DNA from: a virus
Lineage: Duplodnaviria; Heunggongvirae; Uroviricota; Caudoviricetes
Length of the DNA stretch: 64,000 bases
Virus record (IMG/VR): IMGVR_UViG_3300027917_003468
Coordinates: 1-64,000 of that record
Strand: one strand, 5' to 3'
This document shows, piece after piece, positions 29,657 through 46,772 of the stretch. Made by a program: the position numbers and the translations under genes. A model generated the notes under the pieces. The model made no database searches, was not told the DNA's origin, and saw only the letters and a program-made list of their open reading frames with translations. Numbering within the stretch: the stretch's first letter is position 1; the number at the start of each line of letters is the position of its first letter.

Positions 29657-29685
29657 CCTGTTCTATTTATAAGAGCTGGAGATAG

Positions 29686-30128: not shown

Positions 30129-30146
30129 AAGACTCCTCCCGTTTTA

Positions 30147-30222: not shown

Positions 30223-30499
30223 AATTACATTAAATAAAATCCTTCTGTAAACTGCTCAATGAATACGGGGGTACTATCGCCGACCCACGCACCTAAAACA
30301 TTGTATTCAAAATATTCCATAGCTTCATCGTTGGTCATACCTTTTCCTATTAATATCTGGATACAATTGTCATAATCATAACATGCCACTGCAGGTTGCC
30401 CCGCTCGATAACATATTCCTATTAAAGCCTCTTCAAATCCATCAGCAAGTAAAGCATCTTCATTTGCATCGGTAAGCATCTCAACCTTCTCCTCAAATT

Positions 30500-31261
30500 T
30501 CATAAGATATGTACTCCCAATGAATGTCTGAATGCTTTTGATATCACAGTCTTTCCTGTGAGTAATTTGGTTCTTCCTAGGGTTTTAAATTTTTTGGGAA
30601 AGATACTATTGTACAAGGTGAAGCAGAGAGTATCTTCACTAATCAATGACATCATACGTTTCTCTTCCTTAAAGAACAGACCTGCATTTTCGATTTTTAC
30701 AGGATATACCTTTCTCTGTTCCACCTTGTAACATTTTTTGTGAAGCTTTTGGACTATTGGTGTTAATGATTTGTGGCCAAGATCTCCCCATTTGAACTTC
30801 GTCTTGTTTTTGATTAGATAATCTAGTATATTGACGTAAGCTGAAATAATCTTTCCACCCTTCTGACTGCCCATAAAGCAAGCACCTACATACTGTTTCT
30901 TGTACGCCTCTTGAATACTGTAAACAAAATCCTTTTTCATTTTATGTAGTGCCGCATGAACCTCCTCAAAATCTCTTATAACCAATGTATCTGAATCTAG
31001 CCACACACCACCATATTTTTTTAGAAGAGCGGCTCGTATATAATTGGATCTGGCTGTAACTGTATGTACTGGATTAGTGTCGTACCCAACTTGATATACT
31101 CTTTCATTCAGATCTGGTAAAAATTTTCTCAGATTTTTGGGAGTTATGTGATTAACTGTAAAGTGCTTGCTGCAGTGCTTTGTTATAGTCTCCTCACATA
31201 CACTTATATATCCAGGTTTTGATGATCCTTTAGGCGTTTCCCAATAAGTAAATAAGTGCAT
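30500..31261 (-). CDS. DxD-type glycosyltransferase (capsule-synthesis/Gly_transf_sug-like)
   Basis: AALLKKYGGVWLDSDT motif. Confidence 0.45.
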   Translation of the reverse strand: MHLFTYWETPKGSSKPGYISVCEETITKHCSKHFTVNHITPKNLRKFLPDLNERVYQVGYDTNPVHTVTARSNYIRAALLKKYGGVWLDSDTLVIRDFEEVHAALHKMKKDFVYSIQEAYKKQYVGACFMGSQKGGKIISAYVNILDYLIKNKTKFKWGDLGHKSLTPIVQKLHKKCYKVEQRKVYPVKIENAGLFFKEEKRMMSLISEDTLCFTLYNSIFPKKFKTLGRTKLLTGKTVISKAFRHSLGVHIL

Positions 31262-31413
31262 AATATTAGCTCATGCACTGGCACATCTGGCATATAACAA
31301 TAATAAACATTACAACTCCCAGCTCATTTAGATGCCTTTCGATTTGGGTCAGCAACTCAATAATTTGGTTAGCACTTTCAGGATCCATATATACTATATC
31401 TCCATTCTGCTGA

Positions 31414-31896
31414 TTATGGTAAACTTATTGATACAACTGGTGAATTGTTGTTTGTCTCATCTGATTCATCCACTCGACAATGTTCTGGCATGAATTCATC
31501 ACCAGCACAGCTATCACCTTCGGCCCACATATCAACAGTTATACCATGTGTCTGGGGTATAAAGGTAACTACTCCAACAAATGTCTCCTCATATCCTTCT
31601 CTTAATGAGGCTGTAGTAGACGGATACCAAAAATTCGTTTGCCCAGGAACAGCAAATGAGACTACAAAAGGTGGATGATAGGCTTCTGTACTATTGGCCC
31701 ACATAGCTGTTTTGAATGTACCAGCACTTCCATCACCTTGATTCCTTACTGTTACTGTTGCTGGAACTTGAACAGATCCAGCCGCATTGATTGATGGAGT
31801 TCCTAATATAAGATTAGGTACCACTATGTCAGGTGTGCAACCAAACAAAGTGATTATAAGGAGGAAAATTGATGTTAAGATGTAATATGATTTCAT
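31414..31896 (-). CDS. lipoprotein
   Basis: Signal plus lipobox LFGC. Confidence 0.45.
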   Translation of the reverse strand: MKSYYILTSIFLLIITLFGCTPDIVVPNLILGTPSINAAGSVQVPATVTVRNQGDGSAGTFKTAMWANSTEAYHPPFVVSFAVPGQTNFWYPSTTASLREGYEETFVGVVTFIPQTHGITVDMWAEGDSCAGDEFMPEHCRVDESDETNNNSPVVSISLP

Positions 31897-31995
31897 AATG
31901 CATGCTCCCTTCTATTATGATAATTATGTAACTACTGCCTACAAACTTAACCTTTTATTTTATATTTATAAGGCACTTTTATGTGCTCTTGTTTT

Positions 31996-32070
31996 TGGGA
32001 GCAGGGAGGGGATTCGAACCCCTGTAGACTGGCGTATGAGACCAGTGAGAAACCACTTCTCCACCCTGCT
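31996..32070 (-). tRNA. tRNA-Met/CAT-anticodon tRNA (could be initiator, elongator or lysidine-Ile)
   Basis: Acceptor AGCAGGG/CCCTGCT; anticodon arm CTGGT-CTCATAC-GCCAG; T-loop GGGGTTCGAATCCCC; CCA encoded. Confidence 0.7.
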
Positions 32071-32248
32071 ATATTAGTTCAGGTGGCCCATAAGGTCCAG
32101 ATACTTCGATATGTCTGATATTTAGTATTGTTACTCCCTCGTACATCAGTTCTCTCCTTGCCTTCATCTCTGCTTCTTTTACAGATCCAGCGTCTATCAA
32201 AAAGGAGTCGATTGCTTCATACACGATTTCTACTTGATATTCGGGCAT
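32069..32248 (-). CDS. small protein between tRNAs (start MPEYQVE, RBS AAAGGGGGGA)
   Basis: Trimmed so it does not overlap the tRNAs. Confidence 0.35.
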   Translation of the reverse strand: MPEYQVEIVYEAIDSFLIDAGSVKEAEMKARRELMYEGVTILNIRHIEVSGPYGPPELI

Positions 32249-32269
32249 GGTCTGTTCTCCCCCCTTTAA

Positions 32270-32345
32270 TGGAAGGCGTGGCGGGACTCGAACCCACAAC
32301 TTTCAGCTTAGAAGGCTGATACTCTTTCCGTTGAGTTACACGCCT
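32270..32345 (-). tRNA. tRNA-Arg (TCT), CCA encoded
   Basis: Acceptor AGGCGTG/CACGCCT; anticodon arm TCAGC-CTTCTAA-GCTGA; T-loop GGGTTCGAGTCCCG. Confidence 0.7.
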
Positions 32346-32791
32346 ACTTATTATTTCTTTAAAAGTTTTCCTATTGTACTGTTCTTCCCATACCATTCAT
32401 AACTGCAAAGTATCCTCTCATCCCACTCGTAACTGTGATGTAGTAACTTTCCATCCTGCCTTCTCCTTTTCGTACCTTTCTATTAGCCGAGATCTTATCC
32501 TTGTGGTATATTTTGATCTCCATATCCATCTTGAAACTAAATCCCTAAATATGGTTATAGGTGATGTCACTAGTCTCAATGGAAAAATTTGAAAGGCACA
32601 GATATTACAATGGAGGACGCAACTGCCTTTCCTCAGCTCATTGAAAAATGATATGGATTTTGGGGGAACACATTTATTATCTGCTATCCAAGGTGTTTCA
32701 AATCCAAAGTAAGTTACCCACGACCAACTTTCATATATGTGGTAGATCCTTGGGAATTTTTCTTTGAGTGCCATTCTATTCTCCTTTGGTA

Positions 32792-32879
32792 TGGCGGAGG
32801 GTAGAGGATTCGAACCCCTGCAGGTGTCACCCTGATGTCGATTTTCAAGACCGCTACCTTACCACTCGGTCAACCCTCC
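32792..32879 (-). tRNA. tRNA-Ser (TGA), long variable arm, CCA encoded
   Basis: Acceptor GGAGGGT/ACCCTCC; anticodon loop CTTGAAA; long extra arm. Confidence 0.65.
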
Positions 32880-33615: not shown

Positions 33616-33795
33616 TTATATATCCTTCCCCAACCAAATTTCTGCTTCGTCCTCTGCCTTGTAATCGTCGGATTTTTTGTAGCACTCATCACTACAATAG
33701 ATCCACCACCAATCTTCCCAGAATTCACTGTATTTGTCAAATCTTTGTGTGGGACGTTTACATATGGGACAAATAAATTTATACCATCCACTCAT
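33616..33795 (-). CDS. 59-aa Zn-ribbon protein (MSGWYKFICPICKRPT...), ATGA-coupled to upstream gene; not in the ORF track (below its length threshold)
   Basis: Read by hand from the minus strand; C..C...C..C pattern; the end coordinate is approximate by ±1 nt. Confidence 0.35.
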   Translation of the reverse strand: MSGWYKFICPICKRPTQRFDKYSEFWEDWWWIYCSDECYKKSDDYKAEDEAEIWLGKDI

Positions 33796-35060
33796 ACTGC
33801 TCTTATTCCAATCCTTGCCTTTTCAATCTGTTGCTTGGGTAGAGTATTTTTATTTATTTCTGCATAGAGAGTAGACAGTGTGTATGTATCCTTATCCTTA
33901 ATCCAAGTACTCTTCTTACCTCTGTCCTTTAGCCATTTTTTAGCTTGAGAACTTGTAAACGGCTCGAATTTGAGTTTTTGTAAGCATCTTCCAGATCTAA
34001 GAAAAGCTGGATCAATATCTTGTTCTTTTTCATTAGAGGTTATGAGAAAGAGTAGTCGTAATCCCTGCCCTAAAATACCGTCTGTAAGATTAAGCAGCCG
34101 AGACATCGCACCACTTTCATGTACTCTGGATTCCTTCAAAAGAAAGTTCAGACCGTCTTCAATGATAAAAAGCTTGAGTGCAGCGTTTTCTTTTCTTTCC
34201 TGTTGTCTGCTACTCTCTCCAAATGCTGTTAGTGGTATCTCCGAGTCAGAGCGGAAATCTGATATGATGATCTCTTTCATATATCCACCGTCATTAAAGA
34301 AACGTTCTGGGTCAATTACATAAATAAAATCAACATCGTTTTTCCATTCTCTCATCAGAGCACGGATGAGAAAGCTCTTCCCAGTACCTGGATCTCCGTG
34401 CCAAAATATAAATTTTCCAAGATCATCGGGTTGTTCTGCATGCAGTAAACTTTCTACATGCTCTTCAAGTAGAGGATAATTCGGTTTGATCTCTCCCCAT
34501 GACGGACAAATAATCTCTCGGCTTGATATGTTTGCATCACCAGAACTATCCATATAGGTAAAGGTTACTCTTACAATTCTAGGATCTTTCGGTAAGGCAA
34601 TATATTCTTCCAAAAGTTTATTAAAAAAAGGAAGGAGCTGTTGATGAAAATAAGCCTGTCCTTGTACTAGATCTTGTGCATATAAATCTACTACGAATGT
34701 TCCTATATGAAATGTAAGTTTAAGGACTATAGTTCCCTCTACTGGAGTACTAATCCATCTACTAGGTATGACTTTATAAATATACTGGTACTTATATCCA
34801 CTGTATCGATAATTAATTATTGTGTATTGATCTCTATCAAGTTTATTGATAACTATATCTCTACGAAATGTATCAGATAGTTTTTGCCACATCGCACTAT
34901 CAATATAACGTATATGTTCACCTTTAAACTCGTCGAGAATACTTGTATACTTTGCAAATTCTTCAATATCGTTTGCAAAAATCGTATGAGTTTCTTTTTT
35001 CATGCCTCCCCTTTCAGATATATGCCTGTTGACGCCCCATTGGGGCGTAGTCAACCACAC
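33792..35060 (-). CDS. AAA-family ATPase
   Basis: Walker A GDPGTGKS; Walker B FIIED; RSGRCLQKLKF arginine-finger/sensor region. Confidence 0.65.
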   Translation of the reverse strand: MWLTTPQWGVNRHISERGGMKKETHTIFANDIEEFAKYTSILDEFKGEHIRYIDSAMWQKLSDTFRRDIVINKLDRDQYTIINYRYSGYKYQYIYKVIPSRWISTPVEGTIVLKLTFHIGTFVVDLYAQDLVQGQAYFHQQLLPFFNKLLEEYIALPKDPRIVRVTFTYMDSSGDANISSREIICPSWGEIKPNYPLLEEHVESLLHAEQPDDLGKFIFWHGDPGTGKSFLIRALMREWKNDVDFIYVIDPERFFNDGGYMKEIIISDFRSDSEIPLTAFGESSRQQERKENAALKLFIIEDGLNFLLKESRVHESGAMSRLLNLTDGILGQGLRLLFLITSNEKEQDIDPAFLRSGRCLQKLKFEPFTSSQAKKWLKDRGKKSTWIKDKDTYTLSTLYAEINKNTLPKQQIEKARIGIRAV

Positions 35061-35223
35061 CTGTCACAGAGGTATTGGTAACACATATGTCCTGTTCCTG
35101 TATCAGGCATGCCAGATATCACCCCCTTTCATATATAGAAGGATGAGGCACAGATGATCCGACCGTGGTGATGTTTTTGCAGTACAAGGAGAAATATCTC
35201 TGTGCCCCATCCTATGCACTTAT

Positions 35224-35637
35224 TTATTTTACATCAGTTACTTGTAGATTTGTACATCCTTGTGGTGGCTCAATAGCAGGTGTAGTAGCTTGAATGATGT
35301 TCGTCCAACAAAATATGATGCCTGTCCCATAATGAGCACCAACACGAATCTCATACGTCGTTTCTGGCGGAAGATCTTGAATAGTAAAGGTCTTTTGTCT
35401 GTCAGTACTATCAGAAGTATTCCAGATTGTAGAACCCAAAACTCGCCACTGCACTCGTGAAATGATTGGCTTATCTGGAGGGATAGGGTATCCTGCTATT
35501 GAACAATCCCCATCTGAAACTGTAGTTAATGGTAAATCCCATGCTAGGCTAATAGAGTGGGAGTTTGCCGCTTGCGTAACACTTCCAATCAAACTACACA
35601 CTAAAATGGCAATTAGTAGTAACCTGTACAATCTCAT
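35224..35637 (-). CDS. secreted protein, possible FN3-like fold
   Basis: Signal peptide ending VTQA. Confidence 0.4.
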   Translation of the reverse strand: MRLYRLLLIAILVCSLIGSVTQAANSHSISLAWDLPLTTVSDGDCSIAGYPIPPDKPIISRVQWRVLGSTIWNTSDSTDRQKTFTIQDLPPETTYEIRVGAHYGTGIIFCWTNIIQATTPAIEPPQGCTNLQVTDVK

Positions 35638-35849
35638 TTTTTATTCCTCCGTTCTTGTTTGGGTTTACCTACGATAAGTGACATTGGAATTTGATGGTAG
35701 TCGAGCTCTTCTACAATGGCTTCTGCAATTTCTCTTGGTTGTTCTTCAATGTGTCTGTAAATAATAAATACTATCTCGTCTACTTTTGATTCCATGAAAA
35801 TTTTGAGCTCTTCGGGTGTCACGTTTTTGCTAATTTCTCCAATGCACCT

Positions 35850-36731
35850 TTATATTTTTACTATATGTTGTTGCAGAAGCAAAGCAAACTCACTTTCACG
35901 ATCAAGTTCTCTCATATCTATTTTCCATGGTACAAGTTCGGCTCCATCACCTCTAATGGTATAGAATTCTCCACATTCGTCGCACACATAAATACAATGG
36001 TATCTATTTTGCTCTACTCCTACAGCGTTTTGGAGCTCAGGTAATACAATTTTAAGAAGACCAGTACTTTTCATGGTATGTATCATATTGCTGGGTACTG
36101 GATATTTCATTCCTTTTATGAGCTCCATCCTCAGCCTTTCTGCAGAGATACGTCTAATCTGCCGTGCATTTCTCCTTATACCGTTGAAGGTTTCTGGTGC
36201 TATGCTCATGTCCATGTCCAACGCCATGAACCGGCAAGCTCTCAACATTCTTAAGTAATCTTCCTGAAACCGTTTGTCTGCATTCCCTACAGTACGAATG
36301 ACTTTGTGGGAAATATCACGCTGTCCACCAAAGGGATCTAAAATACCATCGGTCTCCAAATCCAGTGCTATGGCATTCATAGTAAAATCTCGACGTTCAA
36401 GGTCGTCATTAATACTGTTAGAGAATTTTACAATGGGTTTCCTACCATTACATTGGAGATCCTTCCTAAAAGTAGTAATTTCAACTGCGTAATTTCGTTC
36501 TTTGCAGTAGATACCTAAAGTGCCGAAACTCTTACCAACACTGTAAATATAATAATCAGAGAATAACTTTTCGATTTCGTGCGGTTTCGCATTAGTGGCA
36601 AGATCTATATCTAATGGTTCTCTCTTGAGGTAAAGATCCCGCAGATATCCGCCGACAATATATGCCTTGTATCCTCTGCATATAAGCCTCTCGCCTATAA
36701 TCTGTGCAAATTCACCTAGTACGACACTCAT
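35850..36731 (-). CDS. cca: tRNA nucleotidyltransferase (CCA-adding enzyme) head/neck domain
   Basis: VGGYLRDLYL...DIDLAT (GGxxRD..DxD) and RRDFTMNA motifs. Confidence 0.8.
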   Translation of the reverse strand: MSVVLGEFAQIIGERLICRGYKAYIVGGYLRDLYLKREPLDIDLATNAKPHEIEKLFSDYYIYSVGKSFGTLGIYCKERNYAVEITTFRKDLQCNGRKPIVKFSNSINDDLERRDFTMNAIALDLETDGILDPFGGQRDISHKVIRTVGNADKRFQEDYLRMLRACRFMALDMDMSIAPETFNGIRRNARQIRRISAERLRMELIKGMKYPVPSNMIHTMKSTGLLKIVLPELQNAVGVEQNRYHCIYVCDECGEFYTIRGDGAELVPWKIDMRELDRESEFALLLQQHIVKI

Positions 36732-37392
36732 ATAAATATCTCTTTACCCTGTGTAGGAGTAGTTCTTTCTTATTGATCTCTGGATGTTCTAGTACCTGTT
36801 CGAGTAGGTGATTCAGAAGCTTTCCAAATACAGGTCCAGGTTTCAGTCCTAACTCGATCAGGTCATGCCCATTGATATCCAAATCGGTTACCTGCATCGG
36901 TGGTTGTTCAGTTTCAATCTCTCTAATTTTCTTTATGAGCTCTTTCAGATGAAAGTTGATTGGGGGTAAACCAGCCTTTGCCAGATTCCCTTTTCGGTCT
37001 GCAATCCGTAACCTTAAGTTGTCTCGGTAATCAGGATTGTTTACCATCCACCTCTTGATACTCTTGGGCTTTGTATCAGGAGTTACGAAATGCATGTGAT
37101 TCCTGACAACTCTGCAGATGTACTCCGTCTCGTTGTTACTGAATTTTAACCGGTCGCAGATCTCTCGGACCATCTTTTCACCCTCTACTTCGTGGGCAAA
37201 GAAATGATAGTCACCAGTATCTTTATCAACAGTACGAGTAGGCACTTTTCCAATATCATGGAGTAGTGCTGCTAACCGTAGAAGTGGGAATCGAGGGTTA
37301 ATTGCGTCCATTGTACGTACACTATGGCTGTACACGTCAGATACCTCTTCCACGCACTTTAGGTTCTCGTATTTGCATTTGTGCTTTTTCAT
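36712..37392 (-). CDS. HD-domain plus CCA-enzyme C-terminal tail domain protein (separate ORF upstream of, and overlapping by 20 nt, the NTase head)
   Basis: LAALLHDIGK ... NHMHF HD motifs; tail TDLDINGHDLIELGLKPGPVFGKLL resembles CCA/poly(A) polymerase C-terminal domains. Confidence 0.65.
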   Translation of the reverse strand: MKKHKCKYENLKCVEEVSDVYSHSVRTMDAINPRFPLLRLAALLHDIGKVPTRTVDKDTGDYHFFAHEVEGEKMVREICDRLKFSNNETEYICRVVRNHMHFVTPDTKPKSIKRWMVNNPDYRDNLRLRIADRKGNLAKAGLPPINFHLKELIKKIREIETEQPPMQVTDLDINGHDLIELGLKPGPVFGKLLNHLLEQVLEHPEINKKELLLHRVKRYLYECRTR

Positions 37393-37440
37393 TTTTTCCT
37401 TGCGTGTTTTTACCCTGCATTTGCGTACTATCTCTACGCA

Positions 37441-37515
37441 TGGTGGTGGTGTCGGGGATCGAACCCGAATCTTGCCGTTATAAGCGACCTACTCTGCCCA
37501 TTGAGTTACACCACC
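37441..37515 (-). tRNA. tRNA-Ile (TAT) tentative, CCA encoded
   Basis: Acceptor GGTGGTG/CACCACC; D-arm ACTCAATGGGCAGAGT; anticodon loop CTTATAA (top stem pair mismatched); T-loop GGGTTCGATCCCC. Confidence 0.6.
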
Positions 37516-38328
37516 AAAATAGAAGTTCTCCAGACATTCCTGTAGGAGATCTCTTATTTCTTCGTGGTGTATTTCTGGCCCCCAAGGAAGTGCGGAGTTC
37601 TCATAGATATGCTGCAATCTCGTCTCCATTTGTTTGAAATATATATGCACTTCCTCTAGGGTATAGAATCCTTTCATAACGGATTTTAGCTGCTCTCTGT
37701 TACGAGTCAGGTCAATATTGCCTCCCAGTAGAATTTGCTCGACCTCATCAAGAAGCCGGAAGATATGAACAGCAAACTTCGTGTCATATCCATACTTCTC
37801 GATCAGTGCCTTTCTTTCTGGACTTTCCCTGCCGTCTGGATCGGTTTTGATCTTGTTCAATTGGCTGAATGCGTATCCTTTAAATTTGTGCCAGGATCCT
37901 TTATGCAAGAACAGGTGCCGATTCTTCCGCACTAGTGTTGCGATTTCTGTTTCAATCAGCACACAATTCCTGGCAGTGAACAAGCTATCAACCATATTTG
38001 GGTTATTTGCTTCTACCAGTTTAAAATACTTTGCGATGTTGTAAATCTGGAAGTCCAAACTATCTTTTTTTGTTTCCCCTTCTACCTCTCCCCTAAACTG
38101 GTCAAATTTAGGAAAGTCATCGTAACCATAGATAAACCCAGATGAACTAGGGTAAACATATTCAATGGGTGGAATGGTAAATCCGTACACATCCCAGTCA
38201 CTGTTCTCGTGATGAGTTCCATATGCGTGACTACCCATAAGAGTCAGGTACTGGATGTTATCAACCATCCACTCCTGCCCCTCGGTAACACGACTTCTAA
38301 TTTTCTTGAGGATCGTGTCTTTATTCAT
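37489..38328 (-). CDS. Pol-beta-superfamily nucleotidyltransferase (YcgL-like)
   Basis: MGSHAYGTHHENSDWDV = GS-x10-DxD minimal nucleotidyltransferase motif; last ~8 codons overlap tRNA-Ile(TAT). Confidence 0.55.
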   Translation of the reverse strand: MNKDTILKKIRSRVTEGQEWMVDNIQYLTLMGSHAYGTHHENSDWDVYGFTIPPIEYVYPSSSGFIYGYDDFPKFDQFRGEVEGETKKDSLDFQIYNIAKYFKLVEANNPNMVDSLFTARNCVLIETEIATLVRKNRHLFLHKGSWHKFKGYAFSQLNKIKTDPDGRESPERKALIEKYGYDTKFAVHIFRLLDEVEQILLGGNIDLTRNREQLKSVMKGFYTLEEVHIYFKQMETRLQHIYENSALPWGPEIHHEEIRDLLQECLENFYFGGVTQWAE

Positions 38329-38437
38329 TTTGTCCTAAGGAATAAGAGGAGGAGAGGGGCGAAACTCCCCTCCCCTTTAGATATCAGATTTAGACTTCGC
38401 CCATAACAAAGCTGCGGATAATTCGAGGTACGTCGGT

Positions 38438-38623
38438 TCATATGTGCGCCCATGTATACCTGTGAACAATATTCCAAACGTTTGTCCGTTTAGCTCCTGT
38501 CAATTGTGCTATTTTCCAAATCGGTACGCTCTTTTGATACAAACTCCGAATCTCTTTTACTTGCTCCTCGGTCAGTTTGGCTTGGAAGTTCTTCTCTCCG
38601 CCTAGTGATTGTTTTTGGTTCAT
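38438..38623 (-). CDS. small HTH protein translationally coupled to rsr
   Basis: ATGA overlap with the rsr stop; HTH-like IWKIAQLTGAKRTNVWNIV. Confidence 0.4.
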   Translation of the reverse strand: MNQKQSLGGEKNFQAKLTEEQVKEIRSLYQKSVPIWKIAQLTGAKRTNVWNIVHRYTWAHI

Positions 38624-40233
38624 ATTTTATCTGTAACAAACGCCTCGATAACACGGGGAACCTCTGCCGAGAAGCCAACACAATCAAGCATCCCAGCATC
38701 TGTAGGATCGGCAATGGAGAAGTTGGTTGCAGTCATACCCATTACAATCAACTTCGCATCTGGATTTACAGCCTTACGGTAGTTGCGCAGTGCCTGATAT
38801 GGATGTGTACGCCCATACCATGTCTCGTTATCAGTAATTACGAGAAAGGTATCGAACTCTGCTCCCATTTTCTGTGCGTGAATCATTGGTAGCGCACAGT
38901 CCGTAGAACCGAAGTTACTGTCCCTCATCTTCCGCACAACTGTATCTAGCCGTTGTTTTGGGCTAATATCCAGTGGCTTGAACTGGTGAGAGAACTTGTA
39001 TACCGCATAGTCCTTCTCCGTATTGGCTGTAACCAGTGCCATTGCTCCTGCTGCTTCCACGCATCGTAGGTTGCTGTTCATGAGGTGCCAACTCATGGAT
39101 CCAGATACGTCAACAGCAATCATGAACCGCTTTCCTGTAGGTTCCACCGCCTTGAATGCTAGATAGAAAGCGCTGTCCAAAGCATCCACGACTCTCTGTA
39201 CTGGCTTCCAAGATAGGCTTCCCCTGAACCCCTGCCCTTCTGCATATGTCTTCAGGGCGAACAGGATTGCGATTGGATGTACACGAGCCTTTTGTAGGGC
39301 CTTCACGTCTCCCAGACTGTCCTCAATTTTTCTTACTAGGTCTAGGTTGTCAGTAGTCAGAAGTCCAACAGAGCTCATTACTCCCAAGTTCCTGATCATC
39401 GCTGTCATGGGCATCTTCTCGGCAAGAGTTTCCCACACCTTTTTACTTTTCTTGAACTTGGTAGGAAGCATCTCATGAGTCAGACCATGATCTCTGACGA
39501 TCTCGGTCAGTCTCTTTTCTGTCATGCCTTCCTCATGTGCTCTCATGTAGGCATCCAGCAAAAGAATACCGGTAGGCTTCACTTTCTTTTCCTTACCCTT
39601 GCCTTCGTAGAAAGCATCCCTATCGGTTACCCATTTGAACAGTAAGGATTCTTTCTCATCACGAGGCTTACGATGGATGACCCTCAGAGCATCTCGTTGA
39701 GACCAGTCGCCTCGGCTTTGGTACTTCACCATCTGGTAGGCCAACTTGTCCAGTGGCTTCTGGTACCAGTTCCACATCAGTCTCCGTACCTTCCGGTTCC
39801 AGCTTGTCAGTTCGTTCAGGTATCCAACAAAGGTTAGAAAATGTGTACCGGTTCTGACCACCTTGTTGATGTTATCAGGAGAGACGGACTGTCCCTTCGG
39901 CTGATTCGCCACGCAAAGAGCAAGAGCAAACAATGCTGGATCGTTCTTGTGTGCCAGACCTTGATCAGAAACCTCAACGATCTCTTTCACTGTGCGGTCG
40001 AAATCAGTACTGATACACTCAAGAACATTCTGGGCGCTCTTGACTGTGAGTGGATGCTCCTTTGTGTAATAGGTTCCACCCTCTGTTCCAAGGATGAGGA
40101 ACCTACGAAGTGTCTGCCACTCGTCAACCTGGAAGACATACCCACCGGCATAGTTCTTGACCTGATCTTTTCTGGCTTTTGTTCGCTGGTTTGTGTTTGT
40201 TACAGCCTTTGCGTAGTTTAGTTTCCGTGCCAT
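38620..40233 (-). CDS. rsr: Ro60/Rsr orthologue (TROVE domain + von Willebrand factor A (vWA) domain with metal-ion-dependent adhesion site (MIDAS) motif)
   Basis: GYVFQVDEWQTLRRFLILGTEGGTYYTKEHPL and PALFALALC match the Ro60 N-terminus as recalled from memory (no alignment run); vWA MIDAS MIAVDVSGSM. Confidence 0.9.
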   Translation of the reverse strand: MARKLNYAKAVTNTNQRTKARKDQVKNYAGGYVFQVDEWQTLRRFLILGTEGGTYYTKEHPLTVKSAQNVLECISTDFDRTVKEIVEVSDQGLAHKNDPALFALALCVANQPKGQSVSPDNINKVVRTGTHFLTFVGYLNELTSWNRKVRRLMWNWYQKPLDKLAYQMVKYQSRGDWSQRDALRVIHRKPRDEKESLLFKWVTDRDAFYEGKGKEKKVKPTGILLLDAYMRAHEEGMTEKRLTEIVRDHGLTHEMLPTKFKKSKKVWETLAEKMPMTAMIRNLGVMSSVGLLTTDNLDLVRKIEDSLGDVKALQKARVHPIAILFALKTYAEGQGFRGSLSWKPVQRVVDALDSAFYLAFKAVEPTGKRFMIAVDVSGSMSWHLMNSNLRCVEAAGAMALVTANTEKDYAVYKFSHQFKPLDISPKQRLDTVVRKMRDSNFGSTDCALPMIHAQKMGAEFDTFLVITDNETWYGRTHPYQALRNYRKAVNPDAKLIVMGMTATNFSIADPTDAGMLDCVGFSAEVPRVIEAFVTDKI

Positions 40234-40263
40234 GACCGTCCCTCCCTATTATGGGGGTTTCAA

Positions 40264-41022
40264 GGAGCGAAGTGGTTAAGGCCTATCCCTAACCTCGGCT
40301 CCTCATTAAAAATAGAGAACTGGATATTATACTTGAGTGGCGTGGGTTGCTTATCGATCTTGGCTATCTCAGTTCTCTGAAAAAGTTGGGAGCAAATTTG
40401 AAAGAGGAAGTTGCCCGAAGGCATTGCGGGTTTGATTAAATGTCAAATGCGATAATCCTCTTTCCCCGGCTCCCCAAACTGGTTTAGATAAAAAAATGAG
40501 GGCAAATAAACTTTGGAAGGAGGTATCATTATAAGTGATAACCTTCCAAATTCGGCCCTCCATCTTACTCAAGAACTAGGTGCGCTTTTTGGAGGTGAGT
40601 TCCTTTCACCTAATGGCTTTCCTAGTTCTGTTTTAAAAGTTGAGAGCTAAACCCGACCAAAGATCTGCCATTTAACACTGGGGTTGGGCGGCAAAACCCT
40701 CCGTTAACCTTTGACCCTCGGCTCTCCATATCATTTATTCCAAAAAAGTGAGAGCAAATCTTAGAGACGATGCCTTTTCCAATTAGGCTATCGCCCCATA
40801 TGTGGGGCGAAATAGATTCGAACTATTAATAACCATCTCTATCCGGCTCTCCAAAAAATTTAGGAGCAAAATTTAGTAAGGGGATCGACATGATCGACAT
40901 GTATGATAACCCTTTACCATCGGCTCCTCAAATTGTCAGATATATATAAGGTTGAGAGCAAAAATTGTTAGAGGGAGCGTTCGCACCATTGCAAGGTAAC
41001 CCTCTACCATTCGGCTCTCCAA
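40264..41022 (-). ncRNA. tandem array of 6-7 small structured RNA genes (Y-RNA-like candidates) immediately 5' of rsr
   Basis: Units on the + strand (co-oriented with rsr; minus-strand reading favoured) at ~40264-40302, 40388-40474, 40498-40560, 40642-40736, 40750-40851, 40863-40927, 40954-41019. Each has a terminal stem GAGAGC/GCTCTC with compensatory variants (GAGGGC/GCCCTC, GGGAGC/GCTCCC, GGAGC/GCTCC) and a second co-varying inner stem. On the minus strand one unit carries a canonical T-arm AATAG-TTCGAAT-CTATT and another a GCC-UUCG-GGC tetraloop. Confidence 0.55.
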
Positions 41023-41042
41023 ACCTTTTATTTCAAGGGGGC

Positions 41043-41098
41043 GGGAGAAATGGACTGGAATCAAGATATTTGGTATTGGTTATATCTCCATTTCTCCC
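41043..41098. repeat. 12-bp perfect inverted repeat GGGAGAAATGGA/TCCATTTCTCCC with ~32-nt loop
   Basis: Seen directly, just beyond the RNA array. Confidence 0.5.
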
Positions 41099-41146
41099 TA
41101 TGTTAACTTGGACATGTAATACAATTGCCCAAGGGAACTGTTACAA

Positions 41147-41205
41147 GCTTGACTCTATTTGTAACACGGTATAAAAATCGTGTCAAGCTTTTTTTTGAAA
41201 AATTT
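41147..41205 (+). terminator. hairpin CAAGCTTGAC..GTCAAGCTTG followed by T8 (A8 precedes on the opposite strand)
   Basis: 10-bp stem plus TTTTTTTT; orientation is puzzling because the neighbouring genes are on the minus strand. Confidence 0.45.
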
Positions 41206-41213
41206 AAATTTTT

Positions 41214-41912
41214 TTATTTCCTTGGTTTATAAGCTGCAGCAATCTCTTTATCTATTTCACCTGTACCTACTTGAGCTTTGAAAATGGGCTCTTCCCGTTT
41301 TACCCATGGAACTCCAACAGAGGCCAGAACCTGCCGTGCTTCTGTACGTTTTACAGGCATGCAACTCATCCCGGCCATGATTGCTGCAATGGCTCTATCA
41401 AAGGCAATCTTACGTCCGGTAGCTTTACAGAATTTTTGCTTGCCACCAGGAAATTGAGAGACGTGTTCTAATGGTGAACAAATAGAAATGCCTCTGTAAG
41501 TAGCCCCAAAGTAAATAATATCGCATATACATACTACGGGTCTGTTGTTATCATCCCGTAAGAAGAAGAATCTGGGCTTTTTGATGTCTGGATCTTCACT
41601 GTTTGGGTCTACCAGTTCATTCAGGTTATCAGTAGCTTCCTTTATTTCCTCCTTAATATCCCTCCATTTCCTCTCAAGTTCTGTGTATTCCTCAACTGTC
41701 TTTATATGTTGTGTCTGTTCCATCTCTTTCTTAGCCTCTTCCGCATCCTTTTTAAGTCTCGTTACCTTCTGTCTGAGGCTGTCAACTATTGAGTACTTCT
41801 TGATGGTATCTACAATGTGTTTTCGACGTTCTTTTCTCTCCTTTTTTCTTGGGAATTGGGTTGCCTTTGTAGCGTCGTCTTGTGCTTCGACTTTACGCTC
41901 TCCTGGTTCCAT
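41214..41912 (-). CDS. hypothetical coiled-coil protein
   Basis: ORF; promoter-like TTGACA-15-TATAAA on the minus strand at ~42005-41975. Confidence 0.5.
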   Translation of the reverse strand: MEPGERKVEAQDDATKATQFPRKKERKERRKHIVDTIKKYSIVDSLRQKVTRLKKDAEEAKKEMEQTQHIKTVEEYTELERKWRDIKEEIKEATDNLNELVDPNSEDPDIKKPRFFFLRDDNNRPVVCICDIIYFGATYRGISICSPLEHVSQFPGGKQKFCKATGRKIAFDRAIAAIMAGMSCMPVKRTEARQVLASVGVPWVKREEPIFKAQVGTGEIDKEIAAAYKPRK

Positions 41913-42312: not shown

Positions 42313-43134
42313 TTATTCCTCTTCAGCTCCTCCAGGTTCAACGATTTCAATTGGATGTTCCTCTACGGTGGCTTCAATTTCTTTTTCGGGGGGACTCTCA
42401 ATCACTTCCTTTTGCGGCTCTTCCTTTAGCAGTGGATTTCTTAAGATTATCCAGTTCTCATTGATCGTGTAATCAACTTTGAGATCTTTACAGATTGTAT
42501 CTACACTGTGATAATTGTGGATATTAGCCCACAATTCTAGTTTTTCGCCAAAATAATCTGGAATGGTACGTTTTGCAGTAGTAGTTTCCTCGATTTCAGA
42601 AAAGGGCTTCACATCGATATGAACAACGGTTTTCCCAATAAGTAGGCTGCGCCGAAGGAATCTTTCTAGATCCTCTTGCTGTCGTATTACATGCCGTGTG
42701 AAAAGCAGATCAAAAGATTGTGGTGGTGGACGTTTGTAAAGATTTAGTTCGGTAAATGATATGCCAGGATTGTATACTCGTGCCATGGCCAATACAGAGG
42801 GTCTTATATCGAACCCGCTATATTCTACCCCTTTGAGATGTGCTCCATACTCCTTATAGAACAGACCGGCTCCACATCCTAGTTCAGCTACAGATTTAAA
42901 TCCCTCCTTCTTTATAAACTCTACGATGTTTGCGTGATCCTCTTTGATGCCATGCTGATACATCTTGTTGAAATGGTAGAGCATTCCTAGGTGATCCTTA
43001 CAGAGAGTTCCTGGGAATTTTATAGGAATACCTCCACGTTTGATTTGAGGTGGTCGTAGGTTTACTCTGGGGGTTTTTAAAGTCTTTTCACAAGCAGCAC
43101 ATTTGAAAGTTTCTATAGTTTCTATGATCTCCAT
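42313..43134 (-). CDS. class I SAM-dependent methyltransferase
   Basis: Motif I VAELGCGAGLF. Confidence 0.6.
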   Translation of the reverse strand: MEIIETIETFKCAACEKTLKTPRVNLRPPQIKRGGIPIKFPGTLCKDHLGMLYHFNKMYQHGIKEDHANIVEFIKKEGFKSVAELGCGAGLFYKEYGAHLKGVEYSGFDIRPSVLAMARVYNPGISFTELNLYKRPPPQSFDLLFTRHVIRQQEDLERFLRRSLLIGKTVVHIDVKPFSEIEETTTAKRTIPDYFGEKLELWANIHNYHSVDTICKDLKVDYTINENWIILRNPLLKEEPQKEVIESPPEKEIEATVEEHPIEIVEPGGAEEE

Positions 43135-43223
43135 GGTTTTCTCCTTTTAAATTGTATGTTTGTTTCCATTTGAGTAGCGACTTTGACTCTGCCATGTTCC
43201 AGTAAGTAATATTTTCTTGTTTT

Positions 43224-44408
43224 CTATTTCCATTTGTATCCTCTAAAAATAGCGTCTTTATTTACTCTATATATGAATGCGTTTATAAGACGCAATATTT
43301 CTACTAGCACTTCTGTTGTTAGAAGATTAGGTTTGAGGCCAAGATCTAATAGCTTTGTGTGTGTAGGATTGTAATAATGCTTCTCCTTCTCTACTCTGGG
43401 ATTTGGAATATGAGAGATCTTAACTTTCTTGTTTCCTTTACTTATAGTCTCATACGCCTCCTTGACCTTCTCTGCCAGTTCATTCACAGAAAATATCTCG
43501 GTTATCTGGTTATAGATCTCTAATTTTCCTGATTGTGGTGGATTCATTGCTGCTAGGTAAACACACTGCATTGTATCCTTAATGTTCAAGTATCCTCGTG
43601 TCTGACCGCCTTCTCCGTATATGGTAAGAGGATGATCAATCAGTGCTTGAACAAGAAAGCGATTCAAGACAGTACCAAAGACTTCATCATAATGGAAATT
43701 GGTAAGTAGTTCTATATCAATCTCTTTTTTATCCCCATCTTCTCTCATCTCGTCCGTCACAAGGCCGTAGACTGGACCCTGCATTAGGTCTGTAACACGC
43801 AATCCCCAAGTTCTCACGTAAAACCATAACATATCTGTATCCATCACCTTTGTTGTGTGATAAAGACTTCCAGCTGCTCGTGGAAATAAAAGTGTGTCTT
43901 TGCGCCCTTTGTAATCTAACTCAAACCAACCTTCAGGAATATCGACATTAGGTGTACCAAACTCACCCATGGTCCCCAGTTTGATAATGTGACAATTAGG
44001 ATTCGTGTCTTTTACAACATATGCGACATTTAAAGTACTGACAAGATTGTTTCGTAAGGTTTGCTCAGCACGTTTTCTGTCAATCATAGACCATGGACCC
44101 GATGGTTGTTCAGCATAATGTATAACAGCTTCGGGTTGGCAATACTCAAATACTCCTCGTAAAAAATCGTAATCAGTAACGTCACCGATTTCTAGTCCAA
44201 TTACTGTATTACTATCTGCTGAAGTATTCCAATGTTTTACTCGTTGATGAAGATTGGGGTTAGGAATAAGAGCTTCTACATCCAGATCCCTCGAAGCATT
44301 ACGTCTGAAATAGTTATCAACACCATAAACTGAATGTCCTCGTTTTGCGAAGTACATTGCAGTTGGCCACCCAAGATATCCGTCCATTCCTAGTATTAAG
44401 ATTCGCAT
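43224..44408 (-). CDS. NAD-dependent sugar epimerase/dehydratase, SQD1/SqdB-like (UDP-sulfoquinovose synthase family)
   Basis: GMDGYLG Rossmann motif; YHTTK catalytic motif; ~394 aa; WGLRVTDLMQGPVYG resembles SQD1. Confidence 0.6.
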   Translation of the reverse strand: MRILILGMDGYLGWPTAMYFAKRGHSVYGVDNYFRRNASRDLDVEALIPNPNLHQRVKHWNTSADSNTVIGLEIGDVTDYDFLRGVFEYCQPEAVIHYAEQPSGPWSMIDRKRAEQTLRNNLVSTLNVAYVVKDTNPNCHIIKLGTMGEFGTPNVDIPEGWFELDYKGRKDTLLFPRAAGSLYHTTKVMDTDMLWFYVRTWGLRVTDLMQGPVYGLVTDEMREDGDKKEIDIELLTNFHYDEVFGTVLNRFLVQALIDHPLTIYGEGGQTRGYLNIKDTMQCVYLAAMNPPQSGKLEIYNQITEIFSVNELAEKVKEAYETISKGNKKVKISHIPNPRVEKEKHYYNPTHTKLLDLGLKPNLLTTEVLVEILRLINAFIYRVNKDAIFRGYKWK

Positions 44409-45187
44409 TTGTTTTTGCTCTCCCGATTTTTAGTAACTCTTTTAGATTCTTCGATGAATTGCTGTAGCTTCTCAGCCGCTGCTTTTGGCCCGAGTTTGGG
44501 ATGCGCCATTAGTCGTTGGAATTGTCGTCTGTTATAGTGGCTTCCTTTCCCTTTTGAGTTCTTTCCTTGATAAGTACTTGTTCCATCACCACGAACCTTG
44601 ATTAATGCTTTATGTTCGTCAGTTTTTCCAAATGACCAACGCATATGCTCGATTAGTACACCTTTCACTAATGCTGTTCTATTGATGAGCTGGGCAGTTT
44701 GTGTGAACCAGTTATCGATTCCGTGAAAAGGGAGTGGAGGCGCATAATAACCGACGGCCCTTACCCAATTTTGATGAACAAATCCGTGTGTGCCCCAGTA
44801 TTGGTAATTCTTCCATCCATCGTTTGTCCATACATATTTTATTCTATCTAGAGGTTTCATGAATCGTGCTATGATTTGAGAATCCCAATTACGAGTCCTG
44901 AATACAATGTCATCAGATGAAAGCATGAGGATGTCACCAGTTGCTTTTTTGTAGGCTTCGTTCCACATATCACTTCCATTCTCCTGATGTGGGCCTATTG
45001 TACCAGTAACATTGGCATGTTCTGTTTGCATCTCATTAAATTTTTCAATTCCAACTTCATCGTCCTCGTCCAAATAGAATACTATCTCTAGATTTTCAGG
45101 GGCATGAGCCGTCTCTATTGCTGAGCCCCACACGCCATCCATATTCTTAGGACGCCCACGAGTAGGGGTGAGAAGTGATATTCTCAT
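44396..45187 (-). CDS. GT-A-like glycosyltransferase (putative)
   Basis: LLTPTRGRP N-terminus and DD motifs. Confidence 0.4.
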   Translation of the reverse strand: MRISLLTPTRGRPKNMDGVWGSAIETAHAPENLEIVFYLDEDDEVGIEKFNEMQTEHANVTGTIGPHQENGSDMWNEAYKKATGDILMLSSDDIVFRTRNWDSQIIARFMKPLDRIKYVWTNDGWKNYQYWGTHGFVHQNWVRAVGYYAPPLPFHGIDNWFTQTAQLINRTALVKGVLIEHMRWSFGKTDEHKALIKVRGDGTSTYQGKNSKGKGSHYNRRQFQRLMAHPKLGPKAAAEKLQQFIEESKRVTKNRESKNKCES

Positions 45188-46149
45188 TATTTGTTCTCCT
45201 TTAATTTTGGAAGGTTCAGGTGCTCAGTAATAGTTGTTAATATTACCTCAACGATATTCTGCCAGTTAAGATGAATAACACCTTGTCTTATTTTGGCTAC
45301 ATCGATATTTTCTATGGCATGTATAAAGGCAGACTCTAATGAATCAAAGCGATGTGCTGCAAAATGTTGTAAGCCTTTTAATAATTCTGGATTGATATAA
45401 CTTTTATTTGCTAAGAATAGTTGAGCTCCACACATTGAACTTTCTATTACAGAGAGACCTAGCGTTTCTTTGTGGGTGGGGCAGAAAAGGTGAGCTCTTC
45501 GGTAGTAAGGAAGATATACTTCATCCCAAGGCCCTGAGATACGTTTCGGTTTTCGATAGTTGTTGACATCATGGACTGTAGGATCTTCAAGGATCTTCAG
45601 TTCTAGCGTTATTCCTTTAGAGGCTACTTTTTCGAGAGCTTTGAAGTAACGCTCATATATCTTATAATTCTCTTTATTAGAGATATGGTCGAGCAGTATA
45701 CTAATGCGGTCGGTGGGCTGATTAGGCATACATCTCTTTGGATCTGCAGCCCAACTGATCTTTGTATCTCCGTAAGTTTCCAACATTGCAAATGCATGCT
45801 CATATTTCTTTGATTTTCTTGTAGATCCATTGACGGTATATATTTTCTTACTTCTAACTTTATTTAATAGTGGCTTCATGAATTTATCGTTCGCATATAA
45901 TTTACCAAACTTACGACTGCTGGAGAGTGGTTTGCAAGAAAGGATAGCATCTGCTTTAGGAAGAGCTTTTATTCGATTGATTACCTGTTTGCTATTTAGC
46001 GTTGGCCACTTTGCAATATCTTCCCTTGTAACTTCAATACCACGGCGTTCTAATTCCTCACAGATGAAGAATGAGGTGTTGCTGCTAAAGTTTTTAATAT
46101 CCTTCAGGGAACTGGCTTTTCCGTCGGATAGGAATATTATCCTTTTCAT
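45187..46149 (-). CDS. GT-B (family 1/4-like) glycosyltransferase
   Basis: C-terminal GLSVIESSMCGAQLF motif. Confidence 0.5.
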   Translation of the reverse strand: MKRIIFLSDGKASSLKDIKNFSSNTSFFICEELERRGIEVTREDIAKWPTLNSKQVINRIKALPKADAILSCKPLSSSRKFGKLYANDKFMKPLLNKVRSKKIYTVNGSTRKSKKYEHAFAMLETYGDTKISWAADPKRCMPNQPTDRISILLDHISNKENYKIYERYFKALEKVASKGITLELKILEDPTVHDVNNYRKPKRISGPWDEVYLPYYRRAHLFCPTHKETLGLSVIESSMCGAQLFLANKSYINPELLKGLQHFAAHRFDSLESAFIHAIENIDVAKIRQGVIHLNWQNIVEVILTTITEHLNLPKLKENK

Positions 46150-46766
46150 TTACCCACTCCCTTTAAGAGATAGAGATTACAGCTAGTAATTGGAGGTTTG
46201 CTCCATGTCCAAACTCTGGCTTGAGTATAGAACTTCTTGCAATGTTCATAAAAGGAATTATCAAGTACGCACGAAGGATGCCATAGATTTTTTGGCACAT
46301 AGTAAAGTTGTTTGTAGATTTCTGGCATACTGTTTACGTAAGACCAATTACTCTTCAAGAATATATCACTGATTATGGTGTTCATCCCAATAGTGGTTAT
46401 GACTATGTTGTGTAATAATATATGATCCATCATTCCATATTCACCAATTGGGTTGTGTGTATATATATAATCATAAGTTTTAGCTCTTATAGTTTTTTCT
46501 ATATGCTTCGCTAGTTCCTTGAGTTCTCCTCTACGAGCATCAACTTTGTAAAAGGCAGAATCATAGGCAAGACATGTGCAAGGAATCTTTAATGATTTGC
46601 AAAGATCAAATAGGGAGTATTTTCTTTTAGCGCACCAGGACCTATTGGGATTTCTCTCATCGCTAGCGCATATTAAGATTTCCTTCTCGCAGTCCTTGTT
46701 CTGTAATATAGGCCAACCGAAGATTATTTCGTCGTCAGGATGTGCCAGTACCATTAAAACCTTCAT
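46146..46766 (-). CDS. PIG-L/LmbE-family deacetylase (paralog of 17344..17949)
   Basis: MVLAHPDDEIIFGWP. Confidence 0.65.
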   Translation of the reverse strand: MKVLMVLAHPDDEIIFGWPILQNKDCEKEILICASDERNPNRSWCAKRKYSLFDLCKSLKIPCTCLAYDSAFYKVDARRGELKELAKHIEKTIRAKTYDYIYTHNPIGEYGMMDHILLHNIVITTIGMNTIISDIFLKSNWSYVNSMPEIYKQLYYVPKNLWHPSCVLDNSFYEHCKKFYTQARVWTWSKPPITSCNLYLLKGVGK

Positions 46767-46772
46767 GATAGA

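Follow-up and report, generated by a model that had tools for sequence, protein, structure and literature searches.

What does a tailed phage do with a Ro60 orthologue, an array of Y-like RNAs, a nucleotidyltransferase of a family that acts on damaged RNA, and a CCA-adding enzyme encoded in two pieces and in swapped order, all within 5.4 kb? The question is raised by positions 1 to 64,000 of the IMG/VR virus record IMGVR_UViG_3300027917_003468 (Caudoviricetes), a stretch of 64,000 nucleotides (nt) that is referred to here as the window. Read along the minus strand from 41.2 to 35.8 kb, the window holds an island composed of a promoter-like site, seven Y-like units, rsr, a short open reading frame (ORF) with a helix-turn-helix (HTH), the gene for an RlaP-family enzyme with an overlapping tRNA-Ile(UAU), and two ORFs that encode the HD and tail domains and the head and neck domains, respectively, of a class II CCA-adding enzyme. 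The parts that the initial annotation had assigned to this segment were all found in place, and on this one strand, by profile searches, ARAGORN and Rfam. The explanation that we regard as the best for the whole, and hold with moderate confidence, is that of a conserved RNA 3'-end maintenance island, which combines a Ro–Y ribonucleoprotein (RNP), RlaP and a two-subunit CCA-adding enzyme. The genes of the island downstream of the array, in the order in which they are read and with lengths in amino acids (aa), are:

38620–40233, minus strand: rsr, Ro60 orthologue, 537 aa, with a TROVE ring and a vWA domain that carries a DVSGS motif of the metal-ion-dependent adhesion site (MIDAS) type
38438–38623, minus strand: 61-aa HTH ORF, matching phrog_20467 (HNH endonuclease, C-terminal part; E 8e-5)
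37489–38328, minus strand: RlaP-family Pol-beta nucleotidyltransferase, 279 aa (PF10127, 53.6 bits against a cut-off of 23; PHROG 388, E 4e-42)
37441–37515, minus strand: tRNA-Ile(UAU) with encoded CCA (ARAGORN and Rfam)
36712–37392, minus strand: HD and tail half (C-terminal) of the CCA-adding enzyme, 226 aa, encoded first (Pfam HD, E 4.5e-12; tRNA_NucTran2_2, E 6e-13)
35850–36731, minus strand: head and neck half (N-terminal) of the CCA-adding enzyme, 293 aa, encoded second (PolyA_pol PF01743, E 5e-33; PolyA_pol_RNAbd PF12627, E 5e-17)

The genes lie on one strand throughout and either overlap or are separated by gaps of at most 164 nt, and the island is probably co-transcribed. In three related contigs (L081, L083 and L084), rsr, RlaP, tRNA-Ile and cca are directly contiguous in the same order as in the window.

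A class II CCA-adding enzyme divided at the neck/HD boundary

The first ORF of the cca pair opens with an 18-aa leader containing Cys and His, followed by an HD body and a tRNA-binding tail. The H..HD..H..H..D signature of the body is complete (H23, H45-D46, H67, H99 and D132) and falls on invariant alignment columns. The same applies to the head motifs GGYLRD..DID and RRDF in the second ORF, which continues into a neck with the nucleotide-templating motif D (EDYLR; E157-D158...R161 invariant) and ends in a 48-aa tail with a CxxC pair and a Trp. Taken together, the two ORFs have the composition of a canonical class II enzyme with an HD domain, such as E. coli Cca or the B. stearothermophilus enzyme (PDB code 1MIV), i.e., head, neck, HD body and tail, with the motifs GGxxRD..DxD, RRD, EDxxR and H..HD..H..H..D. 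In the alignment, just two residues lie between the neck end (QNxxH) and the first HD helix (DVxxH) of the canonical enzymes, and it is here that the phage enzyme is broken: the head ORF passes NRYH and runs into its 48-residue tail, while the HD ORF has its 18-residue leader ahead of DVYSH. PHROG 2244, a phage tRNA-nucleotidyltransferase profile, is split correspondingly, with positions 3–221 in the head ORF and 223–375 in the HD and tail ORF. Hence, the neck/HD boundary is precisely where the class II CCA-adding enzyme is divided between the two ORFs. Instead of a single polypeptide in the order head, neck, body, tail, there are two, body and tail residing on the separate ORF at 36712–37392, and the C-terminal half lies upstream, with the start of the head and neck gene overlapping its end by 20 nt. 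Also unlike the canonical enzymes, each of the broken ends bears an extra Cys/His element (the 48-aa tail and the 18-aa leader), for which no Pfam family match was found.

The permuted or split CCA-adding enzyme described in the initial annotation, with GGxxRD..DxD and RRDF in one ORF and HD and tail domains in the other, is therefore real, and the nucleotidyltransferases fall into the families predicted there; none was assigned to an antibiotic family or to the cyclic oligonucleotide-based antiphage signalling systems (CBASS). CCA synthesis is divided over two separately encoded class II-family proteins in Aquifex aeolicus as well, but its CC-adding and A-adding enzymes are full-length paralogues, each complete from head to tail, that share the reaction steps, whereas the phage enzyme is divided by domain and neither piece is a complete enzyme. 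No description of a split, order-swapped CCA-adding enzyme was found in the literature searched.

The HD-then-head order is present in seven contig lineages with 47–100% identity, namely that of the window and, with decreasing identity of the head to that of the window, L081 (78%), L083 (68%), L084–L086 (61%), L087 (51%), L094 (49%) and L096 (47%). The window sequence is also represented by a 78-kb metagenomic contig and two further short assemblies, and its HD/head junction was assembled independently in three samples. The usual 20-nt overlap suggests translational coupling of the two genes; in L087 they are separated by a 9-nt gap, and in L094 an 84-aa ORF (269–523), which overlaps the head gene by 20 nt, lies between them. 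More distant phage homologues are canonical, with HD directly after head in 44 of the 44 IMG/VR loci where an HD part could be detected. Among 1.84 billion representative proteins, the head tail recurs in no more than a few short clusters (P0123, P0244 and P0245), and no unsplit protein with the same insert was found among the best 150 of 41,399 matches; the insert in P0322 is unrelated to the junction element.

Both halves are under purifying selection, with ratios of nonsynonymous to synonymous change (dN/dS) of about 0.05–0.2 (head 0.06–0.12; the added tail 0.12–0.34 and leader 0.05–0.18), values that are rough because dS is near saturation. The gene order is non-canonical, as might be expected of a rearranged pseudogene or an assembly artefact, but such an origin is hardly conceivable for a junction that is identical in three independent assemblies and recurs in six further lineages, with frames and catalytic motifs intact and dN/dS in this range, and it was rejected.

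A more substantial question is whether the two halves act as one enzyme. The CxxC pair and the Trp of the head tail are invariant in the alignment, and a Cys/His pair is found in every leader examined, mostly as HxC and as CxxH in L096. An AlphaFold2 (AF2) model of head and HD joined in canonical order has a predicted local confidence (pLDDT) of 91.5 and a predicted template modelling score (pTM) of 0.86. The junction in this model is ordered (pLDDT 74–91), with three strands and a helix contributed by the tail and one strand by the leader. By comparison, the HD ORF modelled alone is confident save for the leader, which has pLDDT below 50 and no secondary structure. The joined model matches full-length solved enzymes (1MIV, E 2e-19), and its top 46 PDB matches belong without exception to the class II CCA-adding, A-adding or CC-adding enzymes or to their close relatives. 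The CxxC tail and the Cys/His leader are thus predicted to fold together at the junction, and we infer a heterodimer that would assemble through this small composite element, which possibly binds a zinc ion shared by the two chains.

The alternative is that the halves are independent enzymes, the HD and tail protein serving as a 3'-end healing phosphoesterase, and the head and neck protein as a nucleotidyltransferase, possibly of lower specificity and with CCA-like or poly(A)-like products. Both ORFs begin with a start codon of their own, and a full set of domains is encoded in each; moreover, the HD domain in E. coli Cca possesses its own phosphatase and 2',3'-cyclic phosphodiesterase activities. 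An intervening ORF, as in L094, would also be compatible with separate functions. In an eighth lineage, L095, the HD and tail gene is followed by a DUF5662 gene, with no head gene within 780 bp downstream, and the halves are therefore separable, at least in position. This arrangement weighs against the two-subunit enzyme, as do the head protein P0128, which lacks the CxxC pair, the roughness of the dN/dS values, and the way in which the joined model was made, since it forces the chains together, is biased toward contact and has no paired alignment rows. Nevertheless, independent halves seem unlikely to us. The genes are adjacent in the same swapped order in seven of the eight lineages, usually with the 20-nt overlap, the Cys/His elements are conserved exactly at both broken ends, and the leader is predicted to be ordered only beside the head tail. 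Furthermore, class II enzymes need body and tail to position the tRNA.

Three other explanations of the junction were considered, of which the first two were rejected. A split intein does not agree with a tail and leader of only 66 aa together, without a terminal HN or a +1 nucleophile and without a match to an intein family; the first Cys is not conserved either, being N, S or E in relatives. Production of a single circularly permuted polypeptide by frameshifting is contradicted by the 9-nt gap in L087 and by the entire ORF between the genes in L094, and the two ends of the canonical enzyme are at opposite poles of the elongated molecule. Finally, the sequence FALLLQQH in the head tail resembles LAALLHD, which could point to a relic of a duplicated HD domain, but the three strands and helix of the modelled tail would be unlike the start of an HD domain.

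Rsr and the Y-like RNA array

The rsr assignment is supported by profile matches (PF25045 vWA_Ro60, E 6e-65; PF05731 TROVE, E 1.7e-37; PHROG 850, E 3e-83). Rsr homologues occur in 365 phage records, the best of them 42% identical, and the protein of L081 is 85% identical. As expected for a Ro60/Rsr gene, it has Y RNA genes as neighbours, in this case directly upstream, where the array mentioned in the initial annotation was resolved into seven units. The elements of this region are:

41158–41186, minus strand: tentative promoter-like element, TTGACA, 17 nt and TACAAA, preceded by an A-rich tract, found by inspection of the sequence
41043–41098, minus strand: leader hairpin between the promoter-like element and U1, an inverted repeat with a 12-bp stem (100% complementary) and a 32-nt loop
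40954–41019, minus strand: Y-like unit U1, 66 nt, which carries GCCGAAUG, a match to the Ro-binding motif GNCGAAN0-1G
40862–40928, minus strand: Y-like unit U2, 67 nt, from the closing-helix motif and comparison with L081
40750–40851, minus strand: Y-like unit U3, 102 nt, YrlA-like (Rfam RF02553 YrlA, 38.3 bits, E 1e-6)
40642–40726, minus strand: Y-like unit U4, 85 nt, closing helix GAGAGC/GCUCUC, with the compensatory AGGAGC/GCUCCU in L081
40498–40560, minus strand: Y-like unit U5, 63 nt, from the closing-helix motif and comparison with L081
40388–40474, minus strand: Y-like unit U6, 87 nt, from the closing-helix motif and comparison with L081
40261–40305, minus strand: U7, a minimal Y-like helix of 45 nt in the 5' leader of rsr, 27 nt before the start codon

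The seven units (41019–40261) occupy a gap of 980 nt upstream of rsr, and each starts with RRGRGCCGR and ends with the complementary GCYCYY, which gives a closing helix with an adjoining unpaired C. A T-run follows five of the seven. RRGRGCCGR occurs nine times in the window, seven of these in the array, against a chance expectation of 3.2 for the whole window and both strands. The strict Ro-binding motif, GNCGAAN0-1G as defined in PMC4201824, is present in U1 only, and the remaining units have GCCGR.

As for U3, alignment with the Rfam YrlA model extends from end to end, T-arm and D-arm included. The fold consists of the T-arm, a 7-bp acceptor-like stem with a short loop, and the D-arm, carried by a long stem with the closing helix GAGAGCCG/GCUCUC at its end; the acceptor-like stem with its short loop is also present in both YrlA-like units of L081. 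The YrlA gathering score of 69 bits is reached neither by U3 nor by the L081 units (42.9 and 27.3 bits), and Rfam gave no match for the other six units, so that, as judged from sequence, only one of the seven is recognisable as YrlA.

Evidence that the units are structured comes from comparison with L081, which has the same array with one extra YrlA-like unit. Identities between orthologous units go down to 55%, and yet, out of 146 consensus base pairs in the seven orthologous pairs, 119 are unchanged, 15 have changed on one side and remain paired, 11 have changed on both sides, and a single pair is broken. In U3, 6 of 30 pairs differ on both sides and none is broken, and the helices of U1 are retained through compensatory changes. 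The closing helices also covary between paralogous units (GAGAGC/GCUCUC, GAGGGC/GCCCUC, GGGAGC/GCUCCC and AGGAGC/GCUCCU). Because pairing is conserved and covarying both across the units and between the window and L081, U1–U7 are considered to be real structured RNAs of the Y RNA kind. U7, which is 96% identical in L081, may be a site where Rsr regulates its own mRNA.

In Mycobacterium smegmatis, YrlA is cleaved by RNase P and receives CCA in vivo (PMC4201824). A tRNA-like module with a 7-bp acceptor-like stem is common to that RNA and to U3 and the YrlA-like units of L081, but the M. smegmatis RNA is a processed, CCA-tailed molecule, whereas the phage units are known from sequence, with sub-threshold Rfam scores. 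A further difference is that both strands of the putative Ro-binding helix can be recognised in the phage units, as in the Y RNAs of D. radiodurans and metazoans (PMC4201824).

Upstream of U1, the leader hairpin has the same stem in L081 and is unlike the Y units, and L081 keeps an identical TTGACA-N17-TACAAA. The promoter-like element was not flagged by a generic promoter scan and showed no enrichment; in general, the counts from the generic promoter and terminator scan were at the level of shuffled sequence and uninformative. Directly upstream of the array, at 41214–41912, is the gene for a protein of 232 aa that is rich in Lys and Glu in its N-terminal half and matches no family; it is found at the same position in L081 (66% identity).

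The small HTH protein that the initial annotation had counted among the parts of the island exists as an ORF, but does not appear to belong to the core. It has no Pfam match and is missing from the nearest relative, L081, where RlaP comes directly after rsr, and it is therefore regarded as an insertion, probably the remnant of a homing-endonuclease-type DNA-binding protein.

RlaP, the tRNA genes and the surroundings of the island

The protein at 37489–38328, described in the initial annotation as a minimal Pol-beta nucleotidyltransferase, is indeed a nucleotidyltransferase, and can now be specified as RlaP. Its motif G32-S33...D44-x-D46 is readable in the translation, and dN/dS is about 0.09–0.11. 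Enzymes of this family extend damaged RNA by one or two nucleotides at the 3'-OH, an activity known for the Pseudomonas enzymes only; T4 NrdC.11 is an RlaP, and the family is present in many phages (PMC12776372). We found RlaP in 364 phage records. In 38 of 80 IMG/VR phage loci, many of which are near-duplicates, the RlaP gene is no more than 8 kb away from cca and is often directly upstream of it. The association with RNA ligases from which RlaP takes its name is not seen here, no ligase being detected in the 64-kb window, the part of the phage genome that the search covered (ORFs of at least 60 aa, E ≤ 1e-3).

The final eight codons and the stop codon of RlaP form the 5' 27 nt (37489–37515) of tRNA-Ile(UAU), a gene that the initial annotation had identified correctly. 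The overlap is also present in L081 (5975–6001), L083 and L084 (2371–2391). Processing of the tRNA by RNase P would strip the RlaP mRNA of its stop codon, which hints that tRNA processing and RlaP expression are coupled.

Nine further tRNA genes lie on the same strand:

24816–32879, minus strand: tRNAs Asn, Gln, Ser-cga, Trp, Arg-acg, Ile-gat, Met, Arg-tct and Ser-tga (ARAGORN/Rfam)

The initial annotation had these as an upstream run. All nine exist, but with respect to transcription they are downstream of the island, and they are scattered over 8 kb among small ORFs. Two of the ten tRNAs in the window, Ser(cga) and Arg(acg), have no encoded CCA, compared with two of eight in L081, two of six in L083 and four of seven in L084. 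The set and order of the tRNAs are common to the four contigs, while the identity of those with encoded CCA varies: it is present in Ser(tga) and Ile(gat) of the window and L081 and missing from the same two tRNAs in L083 and L084, and Arg(acg) is without it in the window only. Such a shifting pattern is expected if a CCA-adding activity is always at hand, and plain maturation therefore cannot be separated from counter-defence by these data.

Repair of anticodon breaks, as by anticodon nucleases, had been suggested as one purpose of the locus, and this finds no support. Neither an RNA ligase nor a polynucleotide kinase, RtcA/B, archease or 2H enzyme was detected among the approximately 100 ORFs of the window, which favours maturation or repair of 3' ends over repair of anticodon breaks.

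A plainer division of labour must be considered, which we regard as possible, though short of probable: instead of serving counter-defence, the island would do housekeeping for the translation and the small RNAs of the phage itself. Cca would mature the CCA-less phage tRNAs and YrlA-like RNAs, while Rsr and the Y RNAs would serve RNA quality control or decay together with the host PNPase, as in the RYPER complex, in which Ro60 is tethered by a Y RNA to this 3'-end-degrading enzyme. The presence in the window and in each relative of two to four CCA-less tRNAs of shifting identity would be accounted for, and so would the lack of a detectable ligase or kinase for break repair; Ro genes of actinophages are likewise placed in or beside tRNA arrays, and YrlA can receive CCA (PMC4201824). 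On the other hand, the intact HD signature suggests end healing. Moreover, bacterial hosts normally supply a CCA-adding enzyme. Finally, damaged RNA ends are preferred by RlaP (PMC12776372). It should be added that this account overlaps with the 3'-end maintenance reading and is not exclusive of it.

Downstream of the head gene is a group of neighbours that is conserved:

33792–35822, minus strand: 62-aa ORF (35634–35822), fn3-like ORF (35224–35637) and AAA ATPase of the classical clade (33792–35060)

The order of these three is the same in L081, L083 and L084, and in L094 the AAA gene is likewise 3' of the head gene. Nothing was found that connects any of the three with RNA. In particular, the idea that the ATPase is a MoxR-type partner of the Rsr vWA domain was rejected, since it belongs to the classical p97-like clade and no link was found. 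The AAA gene of L084 (4799–6997) and that of L085 carry a homing-endonuclease-type intein (Hom_end_hint), which the window copy does not have.

The window derives from a tailed phage with a large terminase, containing an inserted element, and a portal protein at 58.9–63.3 kb, and nearly all genes between 6.5 and 57.5 kb are on the minus strand. The terminase (58855–61710) has 951 aa, and its middle segment matches a phage family of the ribonucleotide-reductase type rather than terminase and is likely to be an intein or other insert. Two ORFs similar to LAGLIDADG-type homing endonucleases, at 2986–3951 (plus strand) and 23152–24111 (minus strand), and an ORF similar to an IS110-family transposase at 6544–7497 (minus strand) point to a genome with many mobile elements. 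A 12-kb run immediately upstream of the island (42313–54319) encodes glycosyltransferases, methyltransferases, a nucleotide-sugar epimerase and PIG-L-type deacetylases; for a phage, this sugar-modification cluster is unusually large. Other proteins include Band_7/SPFH (10312–11178), radical SAM (19628–20512), a circularly permuted YpsA (SLOG) protein situated inside the tRNA region (26439–26933), a DHH/DHHA1 phosphoesterase similar to nanoRNase or RecJ (55150–55938) and, among the small ORFs, HSP20.

Possible function of the island

Based on the parts and their arrangement, the following scheme can be proposed. The seven Y-like RNAs and Rsr would form an RNP that captures structured or damaged RNA ends, RlaP would, by the activity of its family, extend a damaged 3'-OH end by one or two nucleotides, and the two-subunit CCA-adding enzyme would then rebuild or make CCA tails. 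Within the latter, the HD and tail subunit would bind the tRNA elbow and probably act as an esterase on 2',3'-cyclic phosphate or 3'-phosphate, while the head and neck subunit would be the templated CCA polymerase; produced from overlapping, translationally coupled genes, the subunits would most likely reassemble through the junction element into the seahorse-shaped enzyme. Likely substrates would be the CCA-less phage tRNAs and tRNAs with 3' ends trimmed or blocked in infection, and possibly the YrlA-like Y RNAs. The view of the initial annotation, that the locus protects or repairs tRNAs, is thereby partly supported: maintenance of 3' ends fits RlaP and the intact CCA motifs, whereas a role in counter-defence is unproven.

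Several observations tell against this reading. A GC-rich hairpin at 38350–38376 could split rsr from the genes downstream. Most other phages have Rsr without RlaP or Cca as neighbours, and the adjacency of the three may reflect a general neighbourhood of RNA genes and not one machine. In addition, the portal is at most 27% identical to that of any deposited or cultured phage, a megablast search of the island against 50,697 phage records gave no match, and scans of IMG/VR and 185,579 species genomes with the HD ORF, from which the clade is absent, yielded no confirmed relative and no host.

Another view makes the island a set of separate accessory genes that have gathered in a variable, tRNA-rich region, where homing-endonuclease-like remnants and inteins nearby point to an abundance of mobile genes. 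The rsr–RlaP–cca triple was not seen in the other phages inspected, which would agree with such an origin. We nonetheless consider adjacency without function improbable, as the order rsr, RlaP, tRNA-Ile, HD and head persists in L081, L083 and L084 despite protein identities of only 61–85% and saturated synonymous change, and as pairings of RlaP with cca, and of Ro with tRNA genes, recur independently in other phages. Among the actinophages, Streptomyces phage Wofford, Gordonia phage Sixama and Mycobacterium phage Sparky have a Ro60 orthologue (39–42% identical) inside or beside a tRNA cluster, as annotated, but no adjoining RlaP or CCA-adding enzyme, and no comparable array of seven Y-like units is annotated there.

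The closest bacterial parallel to the 3'-end maintenance island is the Salmonella rsr–yrlBA–rtcBA operon, which is implicated in tRNA repair and similarly has Y RNAs, including the tRNA-like YrlA, ahead of rsr, with RNA-end-repair enzymes nearby (PMC7790460, PMC4201824). The RtcB ligase, RtcA cyclase and RtcR activator were not detected in the 64-kb window, and the partners of Rsr are instead RlaP and the CCA-adding enzyme; the island is phage-borne, and has seven Y-like units compared with two in Salmonella. On the phage side, the RNA-repair kits of jumbo phages contain RlaP, a CCA-adding enzyme and a Ro/TROVE protein with a tRNA-like partner (PMC7824862), and the category as such is therefore already known. 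Those kits and T4 NrdC.11 (PMC12776372) resemble the island in the use of such proteins, and of tRNA genes, as tools to restore RNA ends. RlaP of the jumbo phages tracks RNA ligases, of which the window has none that could be detected, and in contrast to these kits the island has its parts contiguous on one strand, with Cca split and its gene order swapped. Specific to the present clade are the contiguous rsr–RlaP–tRNA-Ile–cca arrangement, the large Y-like array, the split and swapped Cca, and the lack, in the window, of a detected ligase, kinase, RtcA/B or related family.

A more speculative extension, which we would call a long shot, is that the components assemble physically into a 'repairosome', and that the split of Cca serves a function instead of being accidental. 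The HD and tail subunit, free of the catalytic half, would sit on the tRNA-like elbow of a YrlA-type Y RNA held by the Rsr ring, and the head and neck subunit, and perhaps RlaP, would be recruited through the junction in the manner of a zinc clasp. Such an assembly would mirror RYPER, with the Y RNA as a tether to an enzyme that builds 3' ends instead of one that degrades them, and if it exists, the seven Y RNAs would be interchangeable adaptors or gates for different RNA clients.

Since the general concept of phage RNA repair has already been published, what the island contributes is no new principle, but a variant and a system for tests. The two parts worth following up are the two-piece, order-swapped CCA-adding enzyme and the seven-unit Y-like array. 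With respect to CCA-adding enzymes, the former looks like a natural experiment, in which a phage clade maintains a clean cut between neck and HD domain, a swapped order and added Cys/His elements under purifying selection, and it provides a ready-made system for the contribution of body and tail to CCA synthesis and for the autonomy of the HD phosphoesterase. The function of the Ro–Y RNP is still poorly defined in bacteria and phages, and a compact segment of 5.4 kb, in which rsr and an unusually large number of Y-like RNAs adjoin RlaP and a CCA-adding enzyme and which could be cloned as a unit, offers a system in which to test it. Defence of the Cas12a3 type cleaves tRNA tails (PMC12851939). 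Should protection of tRNA 3' ends be what the island provides, it would form the counterpart of defences that act by cutting or extending these tails, such as Cas12a3 and MenT.

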